Origin: a virus
Lineage: Duplodnaviria; Caudoviricetes
IMG/VR virus record: IMGVR_UViG_3300005613_000108
Location: 1 to 47,725 of that record
DNA: 47,725 bases
Direction: 5' to 3' (one strand)
Shown here: positions 17,364 through 47,725 of the stretch, piece by piece
Numbering within the stretch: position 1 is the first letter of the stretch
Layout: each line of letters begins with the position of its first letter
The notes under the pieces: generated by a model
What the model was told of the DNA's origin: nothing
The model's input: the letters and a program-made list of their open reading frames with translations, nothing else
The model's database searches: none
Made by a program: the position numbers and the translations under genes

Positions 17364-18455
17364 TTAGCTACCGGCGGTGATGGCTTCGAGCTTGACGAAG
17401 AACGACGGAGCCTCAAACTTCATCTGCCCAAAAAAGTAGGCCGCGTAGAGGTCGTCGAGCGATTCGATCTTGTGGTCGCGCTCATAGGCGACGAGCTGGT
17501 CTTCCATGCAGTGAAGCTCCAACTTGTCCCACGGGAACATATACCCAACACCCGAGGGTACTGAGTATTCGTGGGCGATTTCCAATCCCTCCCAGTTCCA
17601 GGTCTTGAACCCGACCTGGGTGAGCTTGGTGTTGCTGCTGGCCACGAATCGCTCATTCGTCCGCAGCGAATCCTTGGCCTGTCGCCAAAGGTCCGTGTCC
17701 AGCACGCAGATGTCCGGGGTTACGCCTTGCAACCGCCCCAAATACGCAATGCCGTAGTTGAGGGCTAACTGCCAGGTGTACCGCCACGTTGCGGCAGTCG
17801 CCCCTTCGGACGACGCCCAGACCGCGGCCTGGTAGTCAACGTCCAGAGGAGACCAGGCGCAGTAATCGGTGTCACCCGAACCCGCCGGGAACGTGCCGGA
17901 CCAGTCGCCGCCAAGGTCGCCGAGGTCGGTATCCTGACCGGCGTAGGTGTCATTTGGATCACCGACATAGCCACCCGAGATCAGGCCGTCATCGGCGAAC
18001 ATGGACTCAAAGCCCATCAGGTCTTGGGTGTAGGTGCCACCATCGGTGTAGATTTTCGTGGCGAGATCGTCCACAAAGTCATTACCTTGTGTCTTCACCA
18101 CGTCCTCGACCAGATTCCACTGCTGCCACTTGCCCTGGCGGTTGGCCAGCTTGTCCAAGTGCGTAACCTTGTCGCCAAGGTTGTAGCTGATCCAGTCCAA
18201 GCTGACCTTCATCTTCAGGTTGCGGCTGGGAAAGCTGATCGAGACGTTGTAGGGGTCAACCGCCTGGATTGACCGCCGACGAATACGCGGCTTCCATTCA
18301 AGCCGCTTACCGGAGTTCTGTGCTCCGTAGCTGATGCAGCCGTGTGCCTTCATCCCGCCGAAGATCACGCTCCGTCGGAAGATCGGCTCGACGGCAACGT
18401 CGAGCATGTTATTGAGTGTGCTCAGTTCGAGCACAGCGCTAGGAGTAAATGCCAT
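17364..18455 (-). CDS. major capsid protein (HK97 fold)
   Basis: About 363 aa after the scaffold gene. G..LEW, backbone helix NLVEDVVKTQGNDFVDDLATKIYTDG, PDICVLD, WEGLEI.HEYSVPSGVGY, C-terminal FFGQMKFEAP. Confidence 0.85.
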   Translation of the reverse strand: MAFTPSAVLELSTLNNMLDVAVEPIFRRSVIFGGMKAHGCISYGAQNSGKRLEWKPRIRRRSIQAVDPYNVSISFPSRNLKMKVSLDWISYNLGDKVTHLDKLANRQGKWQQWNLVEDVVKTQGNDFVDDLATKIYTDGGTYTQDLMGFESMFADDGLISGGYVGDPNDTYAGQDTDLGDLGGDWSGTFPAGSGDTDYCAWSPLDVDYQAAVWASSEGATAATWRYTWQLALNYGIAYLGRLQGVTPDICVLDTDLWRQAKDSLRTNERFVASSNTKLTQVGFKTWNWEGLEIAHEYSVPSGVGYMFPWDKLELHCMEDQLVAYERDHKIESLDDLYAAYFFGQMKFEAPSFFVKLEAITAGS

Positions 18456-18624: not shown

Positions 18625-19602
18625 TTAGGAGGCCGTGCCTCCATCATCGTCATCATCTACCGCAATACCCTTGTGCTTCATAAGCGCCACCAATGCGCCT
18701 GGGCCGCGATGCTTGCGGAAAAAATCCTTCTCGTCAACTTTCGGCGCTGTCGGCGTACCGATTGGTGTTTGGTGCTCGGCACGCGGATTAGGGGTCAAAG
18801 TGTTTCGCGGCTTGGGGATTGAGCCCTTGACGTTCGCGATGGCTTTTTCCCACAAGCCAACGTGATGTACTTTTTTGTCAAGTTCAGGAACCGCCTCCAC
18901 CAATGCCTCATACTCCGCAACCGCTTTGTCACCCCACTTCGTTAGCCCGGTGGATGGATCACCGTTGACGTACAACAGCGATTTTTCGCGCTCGTTGATT
19001 TGCTGCAATCGCGTCTGTCTCTTTTCGACGGCAAGCGTGCTGTTTGTCTTCTCAGCCAACTCCTCAAGCAACGACTGCTTGAAATCACCCAGCGCCTCGG
19101 AAAAGAATCCCTTCGGGTCCATCGCGATCCGAACGGTCGCCTCCGCAATTCGCTCGTCGGCGTCACGCAGGCGGCGAATGTCGTCCTGGTTGGCTCCCGA
19201 CCGAACCTTGCCGGAATCGTCATAGACTCGCGATTGCAGAAGTTGATACTCAGCCTTCGATACCGGCTGAGTTTGCGGAGAGTCCGTGGAGGCGGGAGTT
19301 GCGGGCTGGGCATTGAGTTTGCCCGCAAGGAAATCGCCGAACTCTTTCTCTCGACCCTGGATGGCCTGGAGGATTTGGTCGTAACCCTCGGCCTTCTCGT
19401 TGCGTTTTCCAACGAGCCGGGAGGCTTCCGTCACCCCCTTGATTAGACTTGCCTCATCGGTGTACTTATCCCTCAGGTCAAGACCGGCTTCCTCGAAGCG
19501 GTCGAAGAGGTCGGGTTGAGGGGACGGATCGGTGGACGGTTCCGGTGACGGTGTTGGATCGGTAGCGACCCCACCATCAGCGGGCTCAACAGGATCAGAC
19601 AT
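18625..19602 (-). CDS. capsid scaffolding protein
   Basis: Acidic Pro-rich N-terminus and coiled-coil body (K.Y.DE..L.KG..EA.RLVGKR), directly upstream of the MCP gene. Confidence 0.7.
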   Translation of the reverse strand: MSDPVEPADGGVATDPTPSPEPSTDPSPQPDLFDRFEEAGLDLRDKYTDEASLIKGVTEASRLVGKRNEKAEGYDQILQAIQGREKEFGDFLAGKLNAQPATPASTDSPQTQPVSKAEYQLLQSRVYDDSGKVRSGANQDDIRRLRDADERIAEATVRIAMDPKGFFSEALGDFKQSLLEELAEKTNSTLAVEKRQTRLQQINEREKSLLYVNGDPSTGLTKWGDKAVAEYEALVEAVPELDKKVHHVGLWEKAIANVKGSIPKPRNTLTPNPRAEHQTPIGTPTAPKVDEKDFFRKHRGPGALVALMKHKGIAVDDDDDGGTAS

Positions 19603-19713: not shown

Positions 19714-19756
19714 GGCCAATTTGGCCCGATTTGCACAGATTGTGTGCACGATGTGC

Positions 19757-20533
19757 CTAATATTTGCGCAGGTTGCGACGACGAGCGCTTGCCAGGTAGA
19801 GACCGACTTCCTGGTAGTCCAGCTTTGGATCGGGCATGAACTTGCGGCGAGACTCCGCAAGTAAGGCGTAGGCAGACCGCCTATCTTTTGCGCTCTTGGA
19901 CAGAGATTTGCCATCAAGCCTGGGGGTGAACCTACCGGTCCAATTGTGTGTATCGAGACCAAGGTGAAAGCAAAACCCCGGAAGCCATATCTGGCGGTCT
20001 TCCGTCCATTTTGCGGTAAAGATACGCCCGCAGGCGTCGGCTACGGGCGAGTTTATCGCATACCAGGGCCAGGAACCCAAGTGTTGGTCGCGTGCATAGA
20101 ACACCTGAAACCAGCCACCCGGCCTGGTTTCGTCGCCCGTAACCATATTGTCTTGCGGGTAGCCATCGCGGTAATTTTCGGGGTCTGGAACATGCTTTCT
20201 CCGTAACCCGCCTATTTTGCCGGGTCGCATATCTCCCAACAGTAGGTTGTGCGGCAACACGATGTCGGCATCCATGACGCACATCCAGTCGTCGCGGCCG
20301 ATCACGTCGAATCCCTCCTCCACCGCGGCCCCCTTGTTGAATTGGGCACCGCCGAGCGAGAAGACTCGCGTTGTGTGGCAGATCACGGTTGGGGCGTATC
20401 GGGCACAGAGTTCTCGAGTACGCTTGTCGGTAGGTGTGGTTACTACGGCGATCTTGTCAAAACGCGGAACCGCCCGCGGCAGGCTGATGGCCAAGTAGTC
20501 GTCGTACTCGACGCACACGATGACGGCGTTCAT
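19757..20533 (-). CDS. GT-A fold glycosyltransferase
   Basis: Start MNAVIVCVEYDDYL (ATGA overlap); FNKGAAV, WMCVMDADIVLP (DxD), GWFQVF. Confidence 0.8.
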   Translation of the reverse strand: MNAVIVCVEYDDYLAISLPRAVPRFDKIAVVTTPTDKRTRELCARYAPTVICHTTRVFSLGGAQFNKGAAVEEGFDVIGRDDWMCVMDADIVLPHNLLLGDMRPGKIGGLRRKHVPDPENYRDGYPQDNMVTGDETRPGGWFQVFYARDQHLGSWPWYAINSPVADACGRIFTAKWTEDRQIWLPGFCFHLGLDTHNWTGRFTPRLDGKSLSKSAKDRRSAYALLAESRRKFMPDPKLDYQEVGLYLASARRRNLRKY

Positions 20534-21561
20534 GTGGAGGTTTCCTGTACGGGACTTTTGCGAATCGTACCCGTACAAGAGTTTGCCGGATTCAGGTCGT
20601 GAAGTCCACCGTCCTGCTCCCAGACGGCCTCGTATTCCGCCGGAATCTCTCGGATCGGCTGGAGGCAGCCGGGGAAGGCTGCGGCGTACCAGCGGTTCCA
20701 GCCGCCACAATGCCGGCGGGCCAAACAACCCTCACACGGGTTGGCAACGCTTTCACCGACCTGCACCGCATCCCTCCAGAGGGCGGAAGTGTCATGCACC
20801 TGGAGCGAGTAGTTCCACTCCCAAGGATCGAACAGTACGTACCGCGCGTTGACAACGTACTTCCACAACTCGGGAGCCAAGTTACATAGCGGGTGGTAGC
20901 GAATAGTAAATAGGCAGCCATGCTCCAGGAGCGTTCTAGCCCCGTCCTCGATGTACGGCCGCAACACTGCCGGGTGAACGGCGACATCCCGAATGTGGTC
21001 GTGCCATTCGTAATGCGGCAAGAATCCAAGGAAGACGAAGTGATAGACCCCCATGGATACTTCGTAGCTGGCCAGGTCCGGCAATTCTCGGTAGTTGAGT
21101 ATCTGCATGGTCACGTTCGTTCGGAACGGAACCTCGTTTGCCTGAAGCCATGTCTTCAACTCAGCTTGCTTGGCGAACGCGCCGGGAGATTCCGCAATCG
21201 CGTCCAGAGTACCGTTCAGACCGTGTGACGAAATGTGCAAGTGGTCCATACCCTGGGCCACGAAACCCTGGTATCGCTTCAGCCCGCAGGCCCCGTTGGT
21301 AATCATGCTGGTCGCCATGCCCAGGGAGTGCGAATAGTCGATGATCTCGGGCATGTTCGCGCACAGGGCTGGCTCTCCGTAGCCGACCATCACCACATGA
21401 TCGAGCCCGCCTTCCTTGGCCTTGTCGATCTTGGCCTTCACTTCATCCAGGGGCACGTCAATGCCTTGGTGAAACTTCGGACTCCGCAAATAGAAGCAGG
21501 TAGCACATCGCCACTGGCACTTCCACGTTACGTCCACGCCGACTCTGGTACATGGGTTCAC
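20530..21561 (-). CDS. radical SAM enzyme with C-terminal Cys cluster (SPASM/twitch-like)
   Basis: CQWRCATC (CxxxCxxC), GYGEP, ITNG, LHISSHG, CEGC....HCGG; GTG start with RBS AAGGAG. Confidence 0.9.
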   Translation of the reverse strand: MNPCTRVGVDVTWKCQWRCATCFYLRSPKFHQGIDVPLDEVKAKIDKAKEGGLDHVVMVGYGEPALCANMPEIIDYSHSLGMATSMITNGACGLKRYQGFVAQGMDHLHISSHGLNGTLDAIAESPGAFAKQAELKTWLQANEVPFRTNVTMQILNYRELPDLASYEVSMGVYHFVFLGFLPHYEWHDHIRDVAVHPAVLRPYIEDGARTLLEHGCLFTIRYHPLCNLAPELWKYVVNARYVLFDPWEWNYSLQVHDTSALWRDAVQVGESVANPCEGCLARRHCGGWNRWYAAAFPGCLQPIREIPAEYEAVWEQDGGLHDLNPANSCTGTIRKSPVQETST

Positions 21562-22808
21562 TTCAGTCTCCTTAATGCTTCCTGGAACACCCACTCGTCG
21601 CCAAGATTGTCGGCGATGAAGTTAGCGAGTTTGGCACCAAACGCTGTCCTTGGTCCCGCCCGCTTCCATTTTTCCAGGTAATCTACCGCATATCTGATTC
21701 CTTCGACGTGATTCACCATGTCCACGTCGATGTCAACGTAATGACCATTGCTCCAGAGGTAATCCCCCAGCTTCAGATGAATCTCCACCAAGCCAACACA
21801 AGCCAGCATGTCGTTCATTCGCAGCCAATGTGCGGCGATCTCTTTAGTAGTCCTGTTTGGCTTTCCCTTGATCCATTGCGCGACATCGCCAATGCGTTTA
21901 CCATCCTGCATCAGCAGTTCCAATGTTGGCGCAAACCATTCCGGCAGGCTATTGAGCACCAAAAACACCGCGTCGTTCTGAACCCCCAAGTCAAACTTGT
22001 AGCGTATGTTGCCCACCCGAATTACGCTATCAGCGTCCCTCGCTGCATTCGACTTGATTGCGGTTCCGCTTTTGCGGATGGCCGTAACGTCGTCGGCCGT
22101 TAGGGTGCGGATAGGAATGTTGGGCTCCACACGCTCGAAGACTAGCGACTGGCGACCGCGTTCGTTTGGCAGCGGACCCCGAATGAGCTTGAATTGCGGC
22201 AGTAGGGCCTCAACATGAGCCTCTAGTGTGTACGTCTTCCTAACGCTTGCGGGCCAACCGTAGGTCGCCTCCCATTTCGGCAGTGAGGTATCACCCTCAA
22301 ACTCTACCGGGCCATCGAGAATCAATACCCTTTCGGTCAAGGCCGCCAGCTTCTTCAATGGAAGATGAAAAGGTGCGTGATGCAGAACGGCGTCCTTGAA
22401 AAAGTGATGATGAACACTACCCGCATGCACCACGTCATACGTTTTCATCAATCCCTTATAAAGTGGAATCTGCCGAAAGGATTTGTTGAAGAATCGAATG
22501 TGATTGAAACCGTGATGCGCACGCACGGCTTCGGCAATCTGGCACGCATGGCCTCCCATCTCGTAACCGTCGATGGACTCGAACCTATCGCGAAGCCAGA
22601 AGCACATGAACCCCTTATTGCAGCCCAGGTCGAGCAACGACGTGCCGCCTTCCCAGAGTTCGGGCATGTTCTGTTGCAGCATATCAACCCGGCGATTGGT
22701 AACGGACCCGGTTGGCTGTAGCGTTTTGGGGTCATACGATTGGTTGCCGGGATAGTTTAGTTTGGCAATCATCGCACGCAAGTCGTCAATTGACAATGCA
22801 GTGGTCAT
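21558..22808 (-). CDS. class I SAM methyltransferase fused to a possible kinase-like C-terminal domain
   Basis: LLDLGCNKG, YDVVHAGSVHHH; C-terminal IHLKLGD...VDIDVD is kinase-like but degenerate. Confidence 0.75.
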   Translation of the reverse strand: MTTALSIDDLRAMIAKLNYPGNQSYDPKTLQPTGSVTNRRVDMLQQNMPELWEGGTSLLDLGCNKGFMCFWLRDRFESIDGYEMGGHACQIAEAVRAHHGFNHIRFFNKSFRQIPLYKGLMKTYDVVHAGSVHHHFFKDAVLHHAPFHLPLKKLAALTERVLILDGPVEFEGDTSLPKWEATYGWPASVRKTYTLEAHVEALLPQFKLIRGPLPNERGRQSLVFERVEPNIPIRTLTADDVTAIRKSGTAIKSNAARDADSVIRVGNIRYKFDLGVQNDAVFLVLNSLPEWFAPTLELLMQDGKRIGDVAQWIKGKPNRTTKEIAAHWLRMNDMLACVGLVEIHLKLGDYLWSNGHYVDIDVDMVNHVEGIRYAVDYLEKWKRAGPRTAFGAKLANFIADNLGDEWVFQEALRRLK

Positions 22809-22835
22809 ATAGCTACGTTCCTTTAGTATTGTGTG

Positions 22836-23492
22836 TTATTTCTTTTTCGGTTGTAGTTCCGGCGGTATGGCTTGCATTTCATTAAGCCGATCACGATGAC
22901 CCGCAAAACGCTTTACAAGTTTGGGCGTCTTGCGAAGCAACCAACTAGAGTCTCGAAAACGAGTGTTCGGCGTATTGAGAATAACATCCACCGCAGCGCG
23001 AACAGCTACATGACCTTCGTTATAGTCATGGCCTCCAATGTAGCCGCCCAGTTTGATCTTTGGAAACCATAATACGATGTCTCTGGACACATTTGCAAAA
23101 TCATGGGCCGCGTCAATGTAAACGAGATCGAACACCTCGTCTCTGAAAAACCGCGCCGCCTTGTGGCTTGGCATGTCGAGCACGGCAACATTGCGGTGCG
23201 ATTTCATCCGCTCCAGAAACACCAAACGATCCGTGTCGGTGGTAGCCCCGTCTTCCCAACAATCAACACACCAGAGATATTTCAAGAATTGCGCGGCGAT
23301 CTCGCTACTCTCTCCCCAGAAGCATCCTACTTCGATACCAATCTTTTCGGCCAGGTTGGGGATGCTCTTGTAGAAGTCCACGATTCCCAATGTTTGGTGC
23401 CCGGCAATTCGCCGTTTGTTTCGCGGCTTGGTAGCAACAACACTCCCACTGCGACTTTCTTGACAGGCGATTTCTAAAGCAATGTTACTCAT
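22836..23492 (-). CDS. Methyltransf_24-type SAM methyltransferase
   Basis: IEVGCFWGES, CVDCW, DLVYIDAAHD, KLGGYIGGHDY. Confidence 0.9.
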   Translation of the reverse strand: MSNIALEIACQESRSGSVVATKPRNKRRIAGHQTLGIVDFYKSIPNLAEKIGIEVGCFWGESSEIAAQFLKYLWCVDCWEDGATTDTDRLVFLERMKSHRNVAVLDMPSHKAARFFRDEVFDLVYIDAAHDFANVSRDIVLWFPKIKLGGYIGGHDYNEGHVAVRAAVDVILNTPNTRFRDSSWLLRKTPKLVKRFAGHRDRLNEMQAIPPELQPKKK

Positions 23493-24141
23493 CCCTTAAT
23501 ACCTCATGCGTTAGACCGTTGTTCTGGACCGCAGACATAAACCATTCCGGTGAAACAATACGGAGGAGCTTTTCACGGTATTTCGTGTAGAATGCTGCGT
23601 CTACGCAAGGATCACGCTTCATCGGCTTATACGGCAACTCTTCCGGCACAAACAAGTTCTGCCGACCTCGGCGCACAATCCCGCAGCCAAACGGAATATC
23701 TACAACTACCATCCGTAAATCTGGCCGACTCATCCGTAAATACGCCCACGCCTTCCAGGTATCGCAAGGCGGCCCGACTTGTGCCAACTGGTTGGGCGTG
23801 GGGATAACATTGTCGCAGAGAATCGTACCGCCAACCGCCAAGCGGTCCAGCGAGTGAACCATATCTCGCAAGGCAGGCAATTCGCGGTGGTCGCCGTCTA
23901 CATATATCAGGTCATACTTCGGCAACCCATGCCCCTCGATAAAAAAGCGGTCTGACGACATCGTAAATGTCGCCCCCGCCTTTGGCTCGATGTCCACTCC
24001 ATGCTTAACCGGAATCTGAACATGGTCAAAATTGTCACCAGTGCGACGAATGCCAATCTCCAAATACGTTTCATAGCCAAACCGTTTAGCCAGCAGATTG
24101 GCGATGTCCAATGGACAGTGTACAACTTGTTCCGTAGTCAT
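23485..24141 (-). CDS. Methyltransf_24-type SAM methyltransferase
   Basis: YLEIGI, GVDIEP, YDLIYVDGDH, GGTILCDN. Confidence 0.85.
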   Translation of the reverse strand: MTTEQVVHCPLDIANLLAKRFGYETYLEIGIRRTGDNFDHVQIPVKHGVDIEPKAGATFTMSSDRFFIEGHGLPKYDLIYVDGDHRELPALRDMVHSLDRLAVGGTILCDNVIPTPNQLAQVGPPCDTWKAWAYLRMSRPDLRMVVVDIPFGCGIVRRGRQNLFVPEELPYKPMKRDPCVDAAFYTKYREKLLRIVSPEWFMSAVQNNGLTHEVLRDE

Positions 24142-24854
24142 AACCTAACCTCATCCTGCATATCAAAGTGAAAAGCGTAGGGCAGCGCATCGCCAAGCGC
24201 GTTCCGAATCGCGCTGGCCGCATATCCCATTCGGCGAAACTCTTTATAGGCCGCAATCCGCTCCTCTCGGCCACCAAGCCGAAACCAGTCGTCCATGCGC
24301 CCCAGATGTGCGATGCCCGGAAACTGTTCGACGATCTCGGTAAACAGCCGCGGACCAAAGCAGTCCCACGTTCGCTGCTTGGTCTCGGTTGCCATAAGTA
24401 TCCCACGCAAGGCACACGCCAGAAAGGCCGAATCGGCAGCCGTGCCAATGACCCCGTTGGCAATCCACTGCCGCTCCTTCGACTCATGCTCGGCAAACTG
24501 GTGCCGAAACCCTACTTGATCTCCAGGCACAAGGTAAGTGTCGCGTGGGAAATCCGCCTGATCCCGGTAGACCTCAATGAGTGGTCGAATCGGTAGAAAA
24601 TCCGTATCGAAGTACCAGCCGCCGTACTGAAGCAAGACGGAAATGCGCAGCACGTCGCTACGTCGCGACCAGACATGATCGGCCTCGGCCTCGATGCTCT
24701 TGTAGGCAGGACGCAGGAACGGCAGCAACGCCCCCTCGCCATGCACCCTGCAAATAAACTCGGGATTCATGTCTTGGAACAAGCGGATATTGTCCCGTGC
24801 CCAATCTGGCATGGGTGGCCCGATCCACACGAACGATATGATCTTCGGAATCAT
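24138..24854 (-). CDS. GT32/Och1-like DxD glycosyltransferase
   Basis: MIPKIISFVWIG, SDVLRISVLLQYGGWYFDTD, NGVI, GPRLFT. Confidence 0.9.
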   Translation of the reverse strand: MIPKIISFVWIGPPMPDWARDNIRLFQDMNPEFICRVHGEGALLPFLRPAYKSIEAEADHVWSRRSDVLRISVLLQYGGWYFDTDFLPIRPLIEVYRDQADFPRDTYLVPGDQVGFRHQFAEHESKERQWIANGVIGTAADSAFLACALRGILMATETKQRTWDCFGPRLFTEIVEQFPGIAHLGRMDDWFRLGGREERIAAYKEFRRMGYAASAIRNALGDALPYAFHFDMQDEVRL

Positions 24855-26311
24855 GCTTTGGCCTTCCTTGCATAGAACAGTGACGTGCCGGGAATTACCG
24901 AGTAGGGAACGCCCCACTCTTCCGCCGCCCAGATCACGCCGGGAAACCGCGTGGTGTAGTCGTGCCCGAGCAGAATCCCGCCTGGCTTGACCTTGGGCCA
25001 GTACAGTTCCAAGTCCTTCCTGGCAATCTCGTATGTGTGGTTGCCGTCAACCAGCACGAGATCAAACTGCCCATCGGGGCAATGTGCCGCCGCCATGTCG
25101 GAATTGAGACCGATATGCACGACCCGCTTCAGATAGCCGTAATGATCGGCAGTGGCCCAAAACTCCGCACAGTCCCCCTCCTGTACGCCGCGTACCGTGC
25201 CGCCGGCAGTAGTCTCGTCATACGGCGCAAATGGATCAATCGCCCACAGGGCAGCTTTGGTGGCCAGCGCCATCACCGCCAACGAACCGCCGCTACCGGA
25301 CCCGATTTCGAGAATCCTGCCTTGTCCAGACACTTCTCCAGCTATCCGGTGGAGTACCAGCGCCTCCAGGTACAGCATTTTCAGCCGAGCGCGCAGAAGC
25401 CCCACGTCCTCGGCCAGTGCCGCAAACTCCGGGTACTTAGCCGCGTCATTATCGTTAGGCGTCGGGATCAGCGTTTGGTTCGGTGGCAGGTATTTGATTA
25501 TCTGTTTCCATCGCGACTCCTCGTCGGCAATTACTTTACTACAGCATCGCGGCAACCGGCCTGGAGCAAACGGCAATTGCGGCAAGACCTTGATTTCCCG
25601 CCAACACCACTCGAATCCAGTTGTCATGTGCAAATCGCGACCAAGTGGCAGTTTCGGCCAGACCTCTTCAAGCCACGATGCCTTTGATGCAATAATCTCC
25701 TGTGAAGAGGTCGCCGCATACTTGGCGATGATCTCCGCCTCGTCGGCACGGACATAACTGAAGTGGTGAAAACTCACGTCCTGACACACATGAACCGGGC
25801 CGGCGGATTGATCCTGGAACCGCACTTTCAGGGGTTGCTTCTTCGCCGACTGCAAGGCCACAATCGGCATTGATGCTTCAACTGGATACACCTGATACAA
25901 CGGCGAGCGGACGTAAGTGTAAATGTGGGCGGTAAAATAATGTACCTCGGGGTGCGCGTCGATATGCTCTCGCAACCGCACCAGCGATTCATCATCCCAC
26001 AATTCATCGCTGTCGATTATCAATACAGCAGTATCTTCCCCGATGTTGTCTCGGATGAAGGCCAACCCCACCTCGTACTGTTCTTCCTGGTGTGACGTTT
26101 CGAGCCACAGTGAATGCACCCAGTCTGGCCTCTGACGTTGCCACCGGGCAACCACGGATTGGCAGTTGTTCTCCAACACACCGCCATTCCACGCTCGCTG
26201 GGATTGTACCATGACAACACCATCAACATGATTTTCAATGCTACGCAGGCTGTAGTTCAGCCATTCGCCTCCGCGAAACGCCTTGTAGAGCGCCACCACT
26301 TGTTTCATCAC
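24851..26311 (-). CDS. glycosyltransferase - Methyltransf_24 fusion
   Basis: N-terminal GT-A (SLRSIENHVD, IIDSDE, HHFSYVR); C-terminal LEIGSGSGGS, IDPF, DLVLVDGNH, PGGILLGHDY. Confidence 0.85.
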   Translation of the reverse strand: MMKQVVALYKAFRGGEWLNYSLRSIENHVDGVVMVQSQRAWNGGVLENNCQSVVARWQRQRPDWVHSLWLETSHQEEQYEVGLAFIRDNIGEDTAVLIIDSDELWDDESLVRLREHIDAHPEVHYFTAHIYTYVRSPLYQVYPVEASMPIVALQSAKKQPLKVRFQDQSAGPVHVCQDVSFHHFSYVRADEAEIIAKYAATSSQEIIASKASWLEEVWPKLPLGRDLHMTTGFEWCWREIKVLPQLPFAPGRLPRCCSKVIADEESRWKQIIKYLPPNQTLIPTPNDNDAAKYPEFAALAEDVGLLRARLKMLYLEALVLHRIAGEVSGQGRILEIGSGSGGSLAVMALATKAALWAIDPFAPYDETTAGGTVRGVQEGDCAEFWATADHYGYLKRVVHIGLNSDMAAAHCPDGQFDLVLVDGNHTYEIARKDLELYWPKVKPGGILLGHDYTTRFPGVIWAAEEWGVPYSVIPGTSLFYARKAKA

Positions 26312-26323
26312 GATACCTCGTTT

Positions 26324-26923
26324 TTACTTGGCCCATTTAGCCGTGAAATACGCTTTGTTGTGGTCCCACCACTTCCCGCCCTGATTCTTCTTTTCATTCA
26401 GATGCGTCACCTCCAGGTCATGCACGCAAATGAACTCCGCAGCGGGATTGAACAGCCGTAGTTGCCGACAATAATCGTTATCCTCGAACCCCGACCCAAT
26501 GTATGCCTCGTCGAACCGTACCGGCGTCTTGCGCAGGGCAATGCACGCGGTTACAATCTCCCTGCCGGGCATGACTTCGCAGCCGACAAATCCATCAGTT
26601 GGGTTTCCAACCATGATGCCGGGCGTGCCGTCCGGGTTGAGTAGTCGCGGTGACGCCATCATGCAATTTGGATGCCGTGCCATGACTTCATCCAGCCGAT
26701 GCACCCAGCCGAGCGGCAGGCCGGTAATATCGTCGTCGAGCATAACCAGCACGTCACTACGGGCCCGGTCGAGACAGATATTTCGATTCTCTGCCGCGCT
26801 AGCCGGATGGCACGTTGCGGTGACACTAACGCGACATCCCGCACTTACGAGAACTTCCTCAATCAGGGGCTTTACTTCCACATAAGGCTTCATGGTGGGA
26901 ATGCCCACATCAATGATTCTCAT
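26324..26923 (-). CDS. GT2-family glycosyltransferase
   Basis: Start MRIIDVGIPT; AAENRN, VMLDDDI, RFDEAYIGSGFEDNDYC. Confidence 0.9.
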   Translation of the reverse strand: MRIIDVGIPTMKPYVEVKPLIEEVLVSAGCRVSVTATCHPASAAENRNICLDRARSDVLVMLDDDITGLPLGWVHRLDEVMARHPNCMMASPRLLNPDGTPGIMVGNPTDGFVGCEVMPGREIVTACIALRKTPVRFDEAYIGSGFEDNDYCRQLRLFNPAAEFICVHDLEVTHLNEKKNQGGKWWDHNKAYFTAKWAK

Positions 26924-27920
26924 GCGACTGATTCTCCATTTGGTAGCGATTGTGGTTGGCGTCCATAATCTCTTTTGTGCGCCAACCAACCTGGTCTCTA
27001 ACATGGGACAATTGCACGATGTTTTCGCTCGGTTCCTTAGGCATGACTGCCTTATAGTGGCTGCCGTAATGCCTCCAGATCGTGCGCAGCATCGACAGGT
27101 CTTCGTATCCCGCACCCACATATCTCTCGTCAAATCGCAGTTTCCCCAAAACATGGCTGCAAATGGACCACTGCGAATTACCAAACAGCGGCTCGCCTAC
27201 TGCTAAGTTCCATTCGGGCAATACCCTCCCTTCGTGGGCCAAGTCCAGTGTCGCGTAGTTCACAAAGGCCTCGTGGACTAAATCGTCCAAGTGCGGATCG
27301 TTCACGCCAACGAATGTGCTGGTCGATTCTGGTAGGTAACGCACACGATAGCACAAACGAGTCACGTCCGTCTGATCGTTAAGCCATTTCGCGCCGCGAG
27401 CGAAGTGTGTACCCACTAGGCTATCGCAGTCCAGAAAAGTAAGTACCTTTGCTCTCGCCGCTAGGGCGTGTTCGATACCGATATTCAGCAGCACATTCTT
27501 GTTGAAGATCGGCATCGGGTCATTACATACCAGCCAATCAATCCAATGTTCCGCGGCCAGCACATGAGATAGCGACCCTTCTCTGCCGGGAGATTCGCAG
27601 ACCACAAGCCGCATTGTATTCCATAGGTCACCGGGATCACTCGCCATGGCATACTTCAGCCATCGCACACACGCCATCAAGTGAGCCAGACGATCACGAA
27701 ACGGAACGATAATCGCGTGGCTCAAACCTTTACGTGGTCCGGTGGGGGTCTCTATCAGCATCTCGCCGCTATCCTCGGCTCGGGCATACGCCACCGCGAC
27801 GGTCATTTCGCGAGCCCGCGACATGATCGACTCGGGCTCCATCCCGGCATCGAATAGAGCGTTGATGGCATCCGCCAGGGCCGCTATTCCGGCCTGGAGT
27901 GGCGGGTTAATTTGTGTCAT
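26910..27920 (-). CDS. GT2/GT7-like glycosyltransferase
   Basis: IIVPFRDR..HL, FNKNVLLNIG, FLDCD, FDERYVGAGYED. Confidence 0.85.
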   Translation of the reverse strand: MTQINPPLQAGIAALADAINALFDAGMEPESIMSRAREMTVAVAYARAEDSGEMLIETPTGPRKGLSHAIIVPFRDRLAHLMACVRWLKYAMASDPGDLWNTMRLVVCESPGREGSLSHVLAAEHWIDWLVCNDPMPIFNKNVLLNIGIEHALAARAKVLTFLDCDSLVGTHFARGAKWLNDQTDVTRLCYRVRYLPESTSTFVGVNDPHLDDLVHEAFVNYATLDLAHEGRVLPEWNLAVGEPLFGNSQWSICSHVLGKLRFDERYVGAGYEDLSMLRTIWRHYGSHYKAVMPKEPSENIVQLSHVRDQVGWRTKEIMDANHNRYQMENQSHENH

Positions 27921-28120
27921 CAGTCGCACCTCCGTGCAAAATGGTCCTGCCGAAGCCGGTCGCTCAAAGCAGTTGCATCGTGCCAAGTCAGGCTCAAGGT
28001 CGGATCATCGGCAAACCGGCCGATTGTCTGGAGCGTGGCCGCACGGCTTACGTCGTCGTACAGAAACACATATCGTTCCGTGCCCTTGATTAGTGCCAGT
28101 ACGTTGAAATCGTCGTTCAC
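27920..28120 (-). CDS. conserved planctomycete-type small hypothetical protein (66 aa)
   Basis: GTG start; NVLALIKGTERYVFLYDD..RA.TLQTIGRFA..P.LS.TW.DA..LS resembles a small protein I recall from Planctomycetota genomes. Confidence 0.7.
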   Translation of the reverse strand: MNDDFNVLALIKGTERYVFLYDDVSRAATLQTIGRFADDPTLSLTWHDATALSDRLRQDHFARRCD

Positions 28121-42933: not shown

Positions 42934-42970
42934 CTTGGTTTCCTCCGTGAATGGTTTGGTTAGTGGTCAG

Positions 42971-43042
42971 CAGGAGCCCCCGGAATCGAACCGGGCCAAT
43001 CGGTTTTGGAGACCGATTCGCCACCTTGGAACATTGGCCCCT
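42971..43042 (-). tRNA. tRNA-Trp(CCA), non-canonical D arm
   Basis: Acceptor AGGGGCC/GGCTCCT plus G73; anticodon arm (A)TCGGT-CTCCAAA-ACCGA(T); T arm CCCGG-TTCGATT-CCGGG; CCA end not encoded. Confidence 0.8.
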
Positions 43043-43269: not shown

Positions 43270-43386
43270 TGGCCCCGGTGGGACTCGAACCCACATGATT
43301 CGCCGAGAGTTGCCCGGCTACAAGGAAATCACTCTTGTATAACCACGGATTGTAGTCCGTGTGCGTTACCGTTCCGCCACAGGGCC
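43270..43386 (-). ncRNA. tRNA-like RNA (117 nt) with abnormal anticodon loop and two-hairpin extra arm
   Basis: Acceptor GGCCCTG/CGGGGCC plus A73; D arm GCG-GAACGGTAA-CGC; CACGGA-CTACAA-TCCGTG; 49-nt variable region; T arm GTGGG-TTCGAGT-CCCAC. Confidence 0.75.
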
Positions 43387-43644: not shown

Positions 43645-44535
43645 TCACGGACGCGGCAACGCTGCCAGTGCATCTCGGGCCGCGCCTCCGTTCGCCTCGA
43701 CAATGCGCGGGTCCAGGTAGTGCCGGACAGTCAACTCCGGCCGGCAGTGGCCCGCTTTGCGACACGCGAGGTCGATTGATTCGCGGGCCGTGTATGAGAG
43801 CGATGTGCGGCGGAGCTTGTGGAACAAGTCCTTGCGCGTCCGGCTTGCCGACAGCCCGGCTGACTCCACGATCAGCCGGAACTGCCGCCAAAGATGAACC
43901 GTGGTAAACGGCCACGGAAACAACTTCCGCCGGCGCGGACTGTACATCGGCCGCATGGCGTCGACCGTCTGACCGGACAATGGAAGCCACTGTTCCGTGC
44001 GGTCTTTCTGGGTTTCGGCCCGTAGCACAATCCACGCTTCCTCTAAGCTGCAATCCGCCGACTCTACCGCCAGAAGTGCGCTGATCCGGGCCGCCGTATC
44101 GTAGATGGTCAAGACCAACGCTTGCCAGAAAATCGACCGGGGCACGCCATCCAGTGGCGCACCGCCGGCCGATCGGGAAGAAATCAGGATGCGGGATACT
44201 TCCTGTGCTCGCCACGCAACAGGTGCCCTTCTCGGCTCCGGCTGTTTCGGGATGAGCCGCGCCCGAGGCGGTGAGGTCAGCCCATCGTCGGCCGCGGCTC
44301 GCCAGAGCGTGAGTAGTGCGCGCCGTCGGCTGTTCGTTGTCGCCGGGCTGTGCGTCCGGGCGTGCTGCTGAAGCCGCTCGGCAAGATGCCGCTCGGTCAC
44401 TTCGCACACCGGGCAGCGACACAAGGAACACGCTACGGCAAGTTGCTTGGCCGATCCGTCGGCCAGCGGCCGGGTAGGGAGGTAGTACCGCGTGAGGTAC
44501 TCGGCAAATGTGATTGCGGAGCCAACCATGAGCAC
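43645..44535 (-). CDS. int: tyrosine recombinase / integrase
   Basis: YDTAARISALL (R), QK (K), FHKLRRT (HxLR), AGH...T.RHY (H, Y). Confidence 0.9.
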   Translation of the reverse strand: MLMVGSAITFAEYLTRYYLPTRPLADGSAKQLAVACSLCRCPVCEVTERHLAERLQQHARTHSPATTNSRRRALLTLWRAAADDGLTSPPRARLIPKQPEPRRAPVAWRAQEVSRILISSRSAGGAPLDGVPRSIFWQALVLTIYDTAARISALLAVESADCSLEEAWIVLRAETQKDRTEQWLPLSGQTVDAMRPMYSPRRRKLFPWPFTTVHLWRQFRLIVESAGLSASRTRKDLFHKLRRTSLSYTARESIDLACRKAGHCRPELTVRHYLDPRIVEANGGAARDALAALPRP

Positions 44536-44882
44536 TCCCGCCGCTGGCCCCTACACAGCAACCATAGCCTACAATTGGGCTATGGCCAAATAGCAAGGGG
44601 TTGTATACGTACAGAGAGCGCATCGTGCGGTTGCATCCGTGCCCACAGTGCCGAGCCGTGGCACCGGGACAGCGTTCGGGTCCGGTTGTGCCGGATCGCG
44701 GGGCTGGAGCGGAAAATCGCTGGCTGAGTCTGAGTCGTGGCCCGGCTGTACGGGCGGCCGACGTTAGATTCCGCTTGCGGGGCTCCGTGTTTCCGGTTGC
44801 ACCCGGCCGCGAGAGGCGGCTGAAGGTGCTATACATTTGGTAAACGCTTTTGTCAGGTCACTCGACCCAACCAACACCCGAG

Positions 44883-44910
44883 ATTATACAGATTCGTATA
44901 CGGGAGTCAA
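44883..44910 (-). promoter_or_regulatory. sigma70-type promoter upstream of int, containing palindrome TATAC-N6-GTATA
   Basis: Minus strand TTGACT-N16-TATAAT. Confidence 0.7.
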
Positions 44911-44915
44911 CCCCA

Positions 44916-45170
44916 TCATGCAGATTTTGCGGAAGCGATTGGCGGGGCTGACAATAGCCGGTCGGTTGAAACGTCGAAAGCCTCGGCAATCCGAGCTAGA
45001 ATGCCCGATCCGGGCAACTGGCGGGCATGTAGCACGCGGTTGATGTTTGCGTGTGATTCCATCGCCCGACGGGCTAATTCGGTCTGGGACCAATTACGGT
45101 CGGCCAGCAACCTCGCGACATTGGCCGCGATGTTCGCCCTTGCTTCATCATCAGTGAGCATTGTCTTCAT
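44916..45170 (-). CDS. XRE-family HTH regulator (repressor/Cro-like)
   Basis: NVARLL..RNWSQTELARRA...HANINRVL......P....LARIAEAFDVSTDRLL. Confidence 0.9.
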   Translation of the reverse strand: MKTMLTDDEARANIAANVARLLADRNWSQTELARRAMESHANINRVLHARQLPGSGILARIAEAFDVSTDRLLSAPPIASAKSA

Positions 45171-45189
45171 GCCCCCATTGTACTAAAAT
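45161..45189 (+). promoter_or_regulatory. overlapping opposite-strand promoter candidate reading toward attP and the capsid-like gene
   Basis: TTGTCT-N17-TAAAAT on the plus strand. Confidence 0.45.
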
Positions 45190-45204
45190 GTAAGGCAGCG
45201 TCAA
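45177..45204 (-). promoter_or_regulatory. sigma70-type promoter giving a probably leaderless HTH mRNA
   Basis: TTGACG-N16-TACAAT-GGGGGC-ATG: the ATG sits at the expected +1. Confidence 0.65.
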
Positions 45205-45208
45205 GAGC

Positions 45209-45283
45209 AAGCCAGCGGAGCCGTTACCACGCTGCATAGCAGGCGTCTCGGGCCGTTGCCGGTTTCCGCGACTCCGCTGGCTT
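45209..45283. repeat. 12-bp inverted repeat / stem-loop abutting the att core
   Basis: AAGCCAGCGGAG (45209-45220) and CTCCGCTGGCTT (45272-45283). Confidence 0.8.
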
Positions 45284-45287
45284 TCAG

Positions 45288-45341
45288 TGGCGGGGACAGG
45301 ATTCGAACCTGCGACCTCGAGGTTATGAGCCTCGCGAGCTA
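45288..45341 (-). mobile_element. attP core: 3' part of a tRNA-Met(CAT), initiator-like
   Basis: TAGCTCG-CGAGG-CTCATAA-CCTCG-AGGTC-GCAGG-TTCGAAT-CCTGT-CCCCGCC-A; the 5' acceptor and D-arm half are absent; about 750 bp from int. Confidence 0.85.
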
Positions 45342-45389
45342 GTCACGTCATGGGCAGCAGAAAGCCCCGGACTTTGCAGGAGAAACTTG

Positions 45390-46253
45390 ATGGGGATCAC
45401 GGAAATGACAACCTGCGTCAGCCACATGGTTGAAGATTTTTTGGGGCGTCACCCGGTATTGGCCTTACTCGACAAGAATGCCACCACGGGTTGCAACGGG
45501 GCCTATCTCATCGAGCCACTTGGTTGGGGCACTACCGCGCACATTCAGATCGCCTGGCATTGGCAACAGTTTTGTTGCGGGAAGAAGCTTCCCCTGCGCG
45601 TACTGAGCGCAAGAAAAGGCGAAGACATCGTGCGGGAGTTGCGGGCCATCGTTTACCGTGTGATGAAGAAGATACGAGACGAGTTTGTGTTTTCGGACTG
45701 GGGACTGTTGCAAACGGCCGCGGGGGCAAACCAAGCAGACTACGGCAGCCACAGCCACACGGACCTGCGAAACGCGCCACGGCACCAACATACGCCGACG
45801 CGGGCTACCTACCAGGCAGGGGATCAGCGAGGTTTACTGGATGCGATTTACCAGGCCACCCGCTCGTCCCAGCAATGTTTCGGCATCGCCTCGCATTCCG
45901 TCTGGAGTCTCCTGGTTGGCGACCAGCCAGTTGCATTCGCCTCGTGTTATGGCGTGGTAATCCGTCGCGGACCACCCGGAATGCCCACCGGCTCGCTGGT
46001 CATCCTCCCAGAACACGGGCCACGGATGAACTTCCTCACACACGATAAGTGGGTCACCCTCGAAATAGACAACGACCTGGACAACCGATCCAAAGCGATT
46101 CAGGCGGCGGCGTATGGAACCTGGATATTCGGCTCGCCGGGGGACTATTGCTACATCACACCCGCGAAAACATCCGACCCCCACGGCGGCTTCTCCCAAA
46201 AACTGGTTGCCGGACCCGATTCCACTCTCGGGGCCCCCGGCCCATACACTTGA
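45390..46253 (+). CDS. divergent paralogue of the major capsid protein
   Basis: RBS CAGGAG; by-eye colinear similarity to 17364-18455 across the whole protein (see findings). Confidence 0.65.
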   Translation: MGITEMTTCVSHMVEDFLGRHPVLALLDKNATTGCNGAYLIEPLGWGTTAHIQIAWHWQQFCCGKKLPLRVLSARKGEDIVRELRAIVYRVMKKIRDEFVFSDWGLLQTAAGANQADYGSHSHTDLRNAPRHQHTPTRATYQAGDQRGLLDAIYQATRSSQQCFGIASHSVWSLLVGDQPVAFASCYGVVIRRGPPGMPTGSLVILPEHGPRMNFLTHDKWVTLEIDNDLDNRSKAIQAAAYGTWIFGSPGDYCYITPAKTSDPHGGFSQKLVAGPDSTLGAPGPYT

Positions 46254-47036
46254 CCATTCGGACCCCCAGCCATAGACTTCAAGTATGAACAGTGCCTGCC
46301 CACTAAACAACGTCAATCTGGCCCGCCAGGGAAGCTGCTCGCAGGCACTGACCCTGGTGGGCCATTTCTTTGCGCTACACATATCTGCCCCCATCTCGCG
46401 AAGGGCAAAACGTATGGCTATCGGCGTGCAGGGCTCCGCGAGAGTACCACGGTAGCACGGGCATGGGCACCGTAGCCCCGACTCATGCCCCCTCCACTTA
46501 GACCGGTATAACTTGTACGGCGCAAGGGCTCCTGATTTGCACCCGTAACAAGGCCCTCGGTCGCTTCGGCTCGTTGGCTATCCTTCTTCCAGCCAACCGT
46601 CGTGGAGGTGTGAAGACAGCGACGTTAAATAAGTGGGGGGGAAGGCGTCTTGCGCAATCTCTCACATGAAGTGAATTGACACCCGCCACCTGTCACATGT
46701 CGGTTCGTCCAACATGGGGTCGTGTCCTCTCCTGTACCCCTCCCTGCTTTCCTCCTCTATCAGCTTACCTAGCTTACCACGCAGAATGCGCGAAAAGGGC
46801 GGGAAGCTAAATACAGGCAACGTGGACTGACGATGGGGGGCCTACCCCCTGGGTCGCGGTGTGTGGCTGTAACCCGTTGCATACCAAGCAGTTACGGCGA
46901 GTCACAATAACCGACCCGGTTTGCGGGCATCGGTGGGGCTACTTGTGAGCTATTCCGATACCCGCCACTCTCGCCCCTCCCCTTCCTGCTCATCATCTGT
47001 GCTATCGTGCCTGGTCTAGCGTCGTCGGTGTCGGCG

Positions 47037-47054
47037 TTTGACTACGTAGTCAAA
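47037..47054. promoter_or_regulatory. perfect 18-bp palindrome TTTGACTACGTAGTCAAA (operator-like)
   Basis: Self-complementary, in non-coding DNA about 60 bp upstream of a promoter candidate. Confidence 0.6.
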
Positions 47055-47113
47055 GCGTTGCGAGGTCTGGAGTTGTGTCGATTCCAGTCGCGCGGAATTC
47101 TTCGGCCCGATAG

Positions 47114-47141
47114 TTGTTTGCCTGGTCAATCGTGGTACAAT
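47114..47141 (+). promoter_or_regulatory. extended -10 promoter candidate
   Basis: TTGTTT-N16-TACAAT with TGn immediately before the -10. Confidence 0.55.
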
Positions 47142-47216
47142 GAGGGTGTGGAGGGCGTCGATTCCGGCCGTTTGGCTGGTGGCCCCCTCTAATCTCATGC
47201 ATGGGAGTGCAATACA

Positions 47217-47725
47217 ATGAAGAGAGTTGACAATTCGACGAAGGTGCAGGGCAAGGCCAACACGCCGCAAGCGCGGTACGAGGCCCACAAGGCCGAGTAT
47301 TGCAAGGCGTGCACGGAGCACGCCAAGGGCGAGATCAACGCCACAAGGTCGTGGGCAGAGCATGCCTATGGCGGGCTGGCTGATGCTTACGCTTCAATGC
47401 CCAGAGGCGGCGATTTCACAAGCGCGCGGCGTGCCGTGCTGGCGGACTTCACAAACGCATCCGGCCGTAAAAACGTCAACCGTGATGTGAAAATGGGCCG
47501 TTTGCTGGAGTGGTGCAAAGCGGAGTCGATTGACCCGTGGTTGACCGACGTGAAGGCACTGCAAGGCGTTTTGGGGTTGTTCGTGTTCGACGCCAAAAAC
47601 GGCGAGTATGCTATCGACGGCAACCACGCGCAGAAGCTCCGGGAGTGGTTCGGCAGCACGGAGAGGACAACCAAGACAGCTGCCGCGCTGGCGACGGAGT
47701 GCGGCAAGAAGCGCGCGTCCAAGTC
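47217..47725 (+). CDS. partial hypothetical protein, runs off the window
   Basis: Not in the ORF track. RBS GGGAG, ATG 47217, frame open to the end (MKRVDNSTKVQGKANTPQARYEAHK...). Confidence 0.65.
   Translation, partial: MKRVDNSTKVQGKANTPQARYEAHKAEYCKACTEHAKGEINATRSWAEHAYGGLADAYASMPRGGDFTSARRAVLADFTNASGRKNVNRDVKMGRLLEWCKAESIDPWLTDVKALQGVLGLFVFDAKNGEYAIDGNHAQKLREWFGSTERTTKTAAALATECGKKRASK

Follow-up and report, generated by a model that had tools for sequence, protein, structure and literature searches.

Why should a phage that has its own major capsid protein carry a second, capsid-like gene 27 kb from the head operon, on the opposite strand and beside an attachment site? The window (the whole stretch of DNA analysed) is a 47,725-bp linear IMG/VR record, estimated to be 70% complete, and its phage is likely to have a host within the Planctomycetes. 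The minus strand holds nearly all of its genes, in the order tRNAs, CsrA, recombination and replication genes, and a large block of methyltransferases and glycosyltransferases, followed by a scaffold candidate (18625-19602), the major capsid protein (MCP), terminase and portal. These last four are on the same contig as the capsid-like gene. The features needed for the argument are:

17364-18455, minus strand: the phage's own MCP, 363 aa, used as the reference for the capsid-like protein
43645-44535, minus strand: tyrosine integrase (PF00589, phrog_1)
44916-45170, minus strand: Cro/CI-type HTH regulator, 84 aa, with family matches
45378-45382, plus strand: Shine-Dalgarno-like AGGAG in the sequence, 7 nt before the ATG
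45390-46253, plus strand: the capsid-like gene, 287 aa, with a predicted HK97 core over about residues 1-260 and a 25-aa low-complexity tail
47217-47723, plus strand: gene-like ORF, the next on the same side and strand as the capsid-like gene, open at the window end

The MCP matches PHROG 9953 (E 1.6e-7) and the NCBIfam model capsid_maj_Podo (NF033394; E 3.5e-17, but below the model cut-off). Its ESM Atlas model has a pLDDT of 0.77 and its AlphaFold model one of 44.6, and the solved structures nearest to its family are 7F38 and 6J3Q. Profile searches gave no family match for the ORF at 47217-47723. Several other features of the minus strand may be recorded here. The phage CsrA (42730-42933, E 2e-22) adjoins a tRNA-Trp at 42970-43042, and a tRNA-like gene at 43270-43386, scored by the Rfam tRNA model at 42.7 bits and missed by ARAGORN, has an apparent 8-nt anticodon loop and a variable region of about 46 nt that folds as two hairpins. 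Directly upstream of the head genes, at about 19750-28000, lie glycosyltransferases, several methyltransferases and a radical SAM enzyme; in one of the glycosyltransferases (24138-24917) the match to the TcdA/TcdB Pfam model is confined to 23 residues at the DXD motif.

The ORF at 45390-46253 is a real, intact gene, and its coordinates, strand and 287-aa product are as given in the preliminary description. Its codon use is gene-like (GC3 0.68; CAI 0.70 vs 0.62-0.78 in 19 other ORFs), and an open frame of 287 codons has a chance of about 7e-5 per position. The coding score is positive in one frame of six, that of the capsid-like ORF itself, which is why a shadow ORF was rejected. Its product has no Pfam, PHROG, PADLOC, NCBIfam or PDB-sequence match, and among the known defence and anti-defence families (PADLOC, Pfam, NCBIfam and PHROG) no model matches it. 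The neighbours are the att site, the HTH regulator, the integrase and a long non-coding stretch, a context by which encapsulin identity was rejected. The non-coding stretch (46250-47200) comprises about 950 bp without a convincing ORF, and three pieces of it recur, at about 85-97% conservation, in contigs from a different sediment run. A promoter consensus overlaps the stop codon of the capsid-like gene. Among sequencing runs, none of RNA was listed with this sequence, and the one DNA run covered only the flanking non-coding pieces and not the capsid-like ORF, which counts neither for nor against the gene.

A phmmer search of 1.84 billion protein representatives returned the protein itself and one relative, P0014 (249 aa, E 1.4e-8), an open frame from a 1694-bp contig with 31% identity over residues 81-261; each of the two forms a single-member cluster. 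The gene had been called an orphan, which is apt as to its extreme rarity but not strictly so, given this one distant relative. No further relative was found by a word-index search (1 of 777 candidates, being itself) or with a profile of the pair (2 of 5116), nor in IMG/VR (0 of 6, 0 of 79 and 0 of 16 stretches), JGI metagenomes (0 of 605 and 0 of 3), 50,697 GenBank phages or 120 listed tRNA-fMet loci. The same holds for 401 Planctomycetota genomes, where 8 short matches (E 0.01-0.09 per genome) were taken as chance. In a loose first look at records with the MCP family, the capsid-like gene was present in 0 of 26 (0 of 13 twice), two of them complete.

The capsid-like protein very probably has an HK97 fold, as predicted by two independent approaches that agree, a single-sequence structure model and a profile test. 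The ESM Atlas model, of moderate confidence (pTM 0.55, pLDDT 0.57), matches capsid clusters with TM 0.58-0.70 over 220-253 residues; nine of the ten rows listed are named as capsid or HK97 proteins, and the tenth is a viral hypothetical protein. An Atlas feature search with the protein gave no match. For the profile test, residues 1-260 were aligned end to end with a 47-sequence profile of the MCP family, using 200 shuffles and three gap settings. This gave z 5.1-5.8, with no shuffle of the 200 as good in any of the three settings, values that are somewhat optimistic, the test having been chosen after local tests came out negative. P0014 gave z 3.7-3.8 against the same profile. A rerun gave 4.8-6.6 for the capsid-like protein, vs -0.5 to 1.75 against three other HK97 families (profiles from Planctomycetota, 30 loci each), and P0014 reached 2.95 against one of them, PF25209, in one setting. 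When ranked with 1847 real ORF slices, the protein comes 3rd of 1848 (z 3.5), and the five top decoy slices have shuffle z values of 1.3-4.1. No second capsid-like gene was present among these slices, which include related phage records and leave ORFs under 260 aa unscored.

The signal for capsid likeness is seen only in the end-to-end alignment with the family profile and in the Atlas structure match. BLASTP against the MCP gave E 1.0, and the pairwise shuffle z against the MCP itself was -1 to 1.3. Against the MCP family, hhalign gave E 0.4, 0.096 and 0.013 as the family grew, none of them significant, and hmmsearch gave E 0.05; free end gaps were significant in one of 18 settings, and global hhalign returned end overlaps only. 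AlphaFold on a two-sequence alignment of the protein with P0014 was uninformative (pLDDT 34), and the absence of a Foldseek match at E 0.001 for that model is meaningless at such confidence. Nine sequence blocks had been paired by eye with the MCP in the preliminary description. They recur in computed alignments (blocks 3-9 in one, 1-2 in others), but the pairwise alignment is no better than chance.

Loop names here follow the HK97 topology and published descriptions of it, and loop lengths come from alignments. The E-loop, reported before as missing, is shortened rather than absent: 21 residues remain between the anchors, vs 37-45 in 56 comparison capsids, so that the tip has lost about 18 residues while the base strands are kept. 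In P0014 the loop has 7 residues, although the start of that protein may be incomplete. Two further loops had been described as lost, and in the predicted register this finds support in a G-loop and an A-domain loop that are short in both members. P0014 has 3 residues in the G-loop (vs 9-14 in the comparison capsids) and 15 in the A-domain loop (vs 26-39). The capsid-like protein has 2 and 16 when read through its pairwise alignment with P0014, and two of the three loop calls depend on this register. In the multiple alignment the middle of the protein is out of place (12 and 5 residues for these loops), as it was in a forced alignment with the MCP family, and folding on the latter would be circular. 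The length of the P-loop is kept (22 in the capsid-like protein and 25 in P0014 vs 21-26), and P-loop, spine helix and N-terminal helix align without a change in length.

According to PMC8569155, the E-loop and A-domain make contacts inside the capsomer, and the E-loop overlies the spine helix of the neighbouring subunit. Because the trimmed parts are contact makers, the capsid-like protein, as modelled, is likely to be unable to build shells. Loop loss is no proof of assembly incompetence, since Che8 builds capsids without a G-loop, as stated in 10.1101/2022.09.09.507160. The two members share in-frame losses although only 31% identical, which speaks for selection of a trimmed form and not for the decay of a copy.

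The gene had also been taken for a paralogue of the phage's own MCP. Identity between the two is about 18%, and the MCP is one of a broader set of capsids, among them the Mx8-like ones with short loops. Against 12 such short-loop capsids the capsid-like protein gives z 4.2-4.8, and against six 12-row subsamples of the MCP's own family 2.4-4.9; for P0014 the values are 3.2-3.5 and 0.8-1.6. A combined profile of the own family and the Mx8-like capsids raises them to 5.7-6.9 and 4.3-4.6, respectively. The E-loop base strands and the segment past the G-loop measure 14 and 15 residues in P0014 (Mx8-like, by eye), vs 12-20 and 12-15 in the short-loop set and 23-37 and 30-45 in the own family. The C-terminal Ser-Pro and the P-loop, again by eye, resemble the own family more. 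In free trees (58 rows with three short family rows dropped, or 39 rows covering two end blocks) the pair falls outside the own clade. Both members are long branches, however, and nesting is not rejected by the AU test, either with the own clade (p 0.35) or as sister to the MCP (p 0.34). The MCP's three nearest Atlas clusters are absent among the rows listed for the capsid-like protein, a weak indication with so few rows displayed. Membership of the same wider superfamily thus stands, but for descent from the phage's own MCP the AU test is undecided and Mx8-like capsids fit equally well. On present alignments a fair description would be that of a superfamily cousin.

Capsid genes were also seen in the Planctomycetota genomes themselves. 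SU10_MCP (PF17236) matches occur in 49 of 351 genomes (L245-L274), mostly as one copy of 370-440 aa with E around 1e-80, a uniformity that suggests a domesticated capsid (gene-transfer-agent or encapsulin-like). One genome has a member of the MCP family (L212, G401:C22:218840-219949; E 1e-103) inside a 352-kb contig, likely a related prophage.

The region between the HTH regulator and the capsid-like gene contains the following:

45161-45189, plus strand: sigma-70-like promoter (consensus only, 9/12, 17-nt spacer), facing the capsid-like gene from beyond the att core
45177-45204, minus strand: divergent promoter (consensus only, 10/12), overlapping the former and ending 6 nt before the HTH start
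45209-45281, minus strand: structured RNA or hairpin resembling c4-2 (37.5 bits; family cut-off 41, not reached), located between promoter and att core
45286-45341, minus strand: att core, an exact 56-bp copy of the 3' part of a Planctomycetota tRNA-fMet(CAT)

The position at an att site given in the preliminary description is borne out, as the 3' fragment of tRNA-fMet adjoins the capsid-like gene. A 49-nt stretch of the core matches exactly in at least 120 genome loci, and all 80 titles listed are Planctomycetota. At 118 of the 120 listed loci, identity runs exactly 5 more bases upstream of the 49-nt query and then diverges. The host loci carry the complete 5' end of an initiator-type tRNA-Met, of which the label "fMet" is an interpretation. 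In the window the 5' part of the tRNA is absent and phage genes lie downstream of the fragment, so the core is most likely attP. A junction of two elements integrated in tandem would look the same in a linear record that is 70% complete. Host DNA flanking a prophage on the right-hand side was considered and rejected; it needs a complete tRNA or a host integrase side, and neither holds.

A scan of 44400-47725 for sigma-70-like consensus matches gave 5 promoter-like sites vs 1.1 expected. Upstream of the capsid-like gene, the scan gave one consensus on the plus strand, the promoter at 45161-45189, which lies beyond the att core, on the side of the integrase; the stretch 45286-45389, from the att core to the ATG, gave none. 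As the promoter points across the att core, integration would separate the capsid-like gene from it. Transcription of the gene is probably confined to circular genomes, infecting or excised, a timing read from a 9/12 consensus match with a strong hairpin between promoter and gene; in a prophage, host DNA could provide a promoter. The HTH mRNA is probably leaderless, given a promoter directly upstream of the start, and the overlap of this promoter with the divergent one is a possible compact genetic switch. A further promoter (11/12) is found upstream of the integrase at 44910-44883 on the minus strand. The c4-2-like RNA starts 4 nt past the att core, which in a lysogen would place it after the host tRNA and before the HTH gene. 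A transcript from the plus-strand promoter (45195-45390) would run antisense to this RNA as well as to 56 nt of the host's initiator tRNA.

Three functions had been proposed for the product: superinfection exclusion, a decoy for capsid-sensing defences, and modulation of capsid size. Superinfection exclusion fits worst, with the sole promoter consensus found lying across the att core, so that integration would remove it. Modulation of capsid size is weakened by the comparison with Ccm, which keeps a full E-loop where the capsid-like protein does not. The decoy fits best. In a rival reading the trimmed subunit would be an assembly poison that stalls head assembly in a competing (or helper) phage by joining its capsomers or by binding its scaffold or portal; it could be made by a lysogen, a co-infecting phage or a second element in tandem at the same tRNA. 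Accessory genes typically sit, as here, beside att in the opposite orientation, which agrees with this idea, as do the P-loop, spine helix and N-terminal helix, which align without a change in length. With the E-loop overlying the neighbour's spine helix, a subunit without the tip could receive this contact yet be unable to make it in turn, and about 18% identity to the own MCP could spare the carrier. A tandem-element junction would resemble attP in this incomplete linear record, and assembly blockers of prophages exist (Tab, PMC10884400). However, integration would split the gene from its only promoter consensus, the short G-loop and A-domain loop remove acceptor surfaces as well, no adjacent antidote gene was recognised, and co-assembly is doubtful at 18% identity (Ccm and its helper capsid share 24%). 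An assembly poison is accordingly rated as rather unlikely. A structural role is more unlikely still, whether as a minor capsid protein or size determinant (a Ccm-like or T4 gp24-like vertex subunit) or as a self-assembling mini-shell. The protein is of the same superfamily as the MCP, and expression from the circular genome would also suit a lytic role; precedents are Ccm, an MCP homologue that occupies pentamers (PMC8569155), capsids without a G-loop (10.1101/2022.09.09.507160) and Family 1 encapsulins with shorter E-loops (PMC8346489). Against this stand a distance of 27 kb from the head operon on the opposite strand, the absence of the gene from all 26 MCP-family records (two complete, in the loose first look), which argues against a core virion gene, the E-loop kept by Ccm, and the lack of a cargo gene nearby.

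The gene might instead be a relic, a captured or duplicated capsid gene eroding without function. Regions beside att sites collect debris, the branches are long, and the gene is extremely rare, with two single-member clusters among 1.84 billion representatives. Such decay is improbable in view of the open 287-codon frame with its Shine-Dalgarno motif and native codon use, and of a motif block conserved between the two members, which at 31% identity have lost the same loops in frame. The least probable reading is that the protein is no HK97 derivative and the resemblance an artefact of modelling and alignment. The lack of any Pfam, PHROG, NCBIfam, PADLOC or PDB-sequence match, the local alignments without significance and the AlphaFold pLDDT of 34 would be in keeping with it, but the Atlas model and the profile test agree independently, and P0014 scores independently against the combined family (z 4.3-4.6). 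There is also a small chance, little greater than that of an artefact, of something else altogether.

The reading preferred here, with a probability of roughly 0.3, is that the trimmed HK97 core may be a non-assembling decoy for capsid sensors that recognise the fold, such as Avs7. Capsid protein is a common trigger of bacterial immunity: Avs7/8/10 recognise it by the shape of the HK97 fold, Avs7 contacting the A-domain and E-loop, and CapRel and Thoeris also sense capsids (PMC13728456). The product would be a trimmed HK97-fold core, likely without the capacity for shell building and probably made only from the circular genome, during infection or after excision. This capsid-like core would occupy the immune proteins of the host without triggering them; if it binds despite having lost the protruding parts, it could fill the sensors without closing them. 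Early production, from the circular genome, of a core that probably does not assemble suits a decoy more than it suits superinfection exclusion. In a fuller form, which is doubtful, the phage would have trimmed a capsid protein to a monomeric HK97 core that jams receptors of the Avs7/8/10 type, wired across attP so that integration switches it off and excision or infection switches it on. The main weakness of the decoy is that a sensor which reads shape could be switched on, instead of blocked, by a mimic of the capsid. The contacts of Avs7 also count against it, as the A-domain and E-loop are the very parts trimmed in the capsid-like protein.

Searches of the open full-text literature found no phage with a loop-trimmed capsid homologue, an HK97 decoy or a blocker of head assembly. 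A natural minimal HK97 core without the E-loop tip, G-loop and A-domain loop would offer a probe both of how the sensors read capsids and of what assembly needs; if it is an assembly poison instead, it would be the head counterpart of Tab. Only two sequences are known, which limits generality.

Among known systems, Ccm of cos-type SaPIs (SaPIbov5) is similar in being a low-identity MCP homologue (24% to the phi12 capsid) encoded outside the head operon, and it cannot form capsids alone, according to PMC8569155. Unlike the capsid-like protein, with its cut E-loop tip, other loop losses and no delta domain, Ccm has a full E-loop and a delta domain; it also belongs to a satellite and becomes a pentamer, whereas the phage that carries, or adjoins, the capsid-like gene has a head operon itself. 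The Mx8-like capsids (capsid_maj_Podo, NF033394) and the own MCP family share collinear motifs with it from the N-terminal helix to the C-terminal strand, but it is 35-75 residues shorter, lies outside the head operon and has no significant local match to them. Tab, the tail assembly blocker of a Pseudomonas prophage, offers a possible logic as an accessory phage gene that acts on virion assembly. According to PMC10884400, Tab acts on tails, is made constitutively by the prophage and is paired with an anti-Tab, in contrast to a gene for which prophage expression is doubtful and no antidote is seen. The MCP-sensing defences (Avs7/8/10, CapRel and Thoeris) are not analogues but the proposed target, as they recognise capsid protein. 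Encapsulins of Family 1 (short E-loop) and Family 4 (A-domain only) are likewise repurposed, trimmed HK97 folds. They are cellular and have cargo operons (PMC8346489, PMC11664910), whereas the capsid-like gene is in a phage and without cargo, and Family 4 proteins have about 100 aa of A-domain only (PMC8346489), compared with 287 aa including the P-domain and spine helix. Overall, the capsid-like gene is real and unusual, and its predicted product a further form of the repurposed HK97 proteins.
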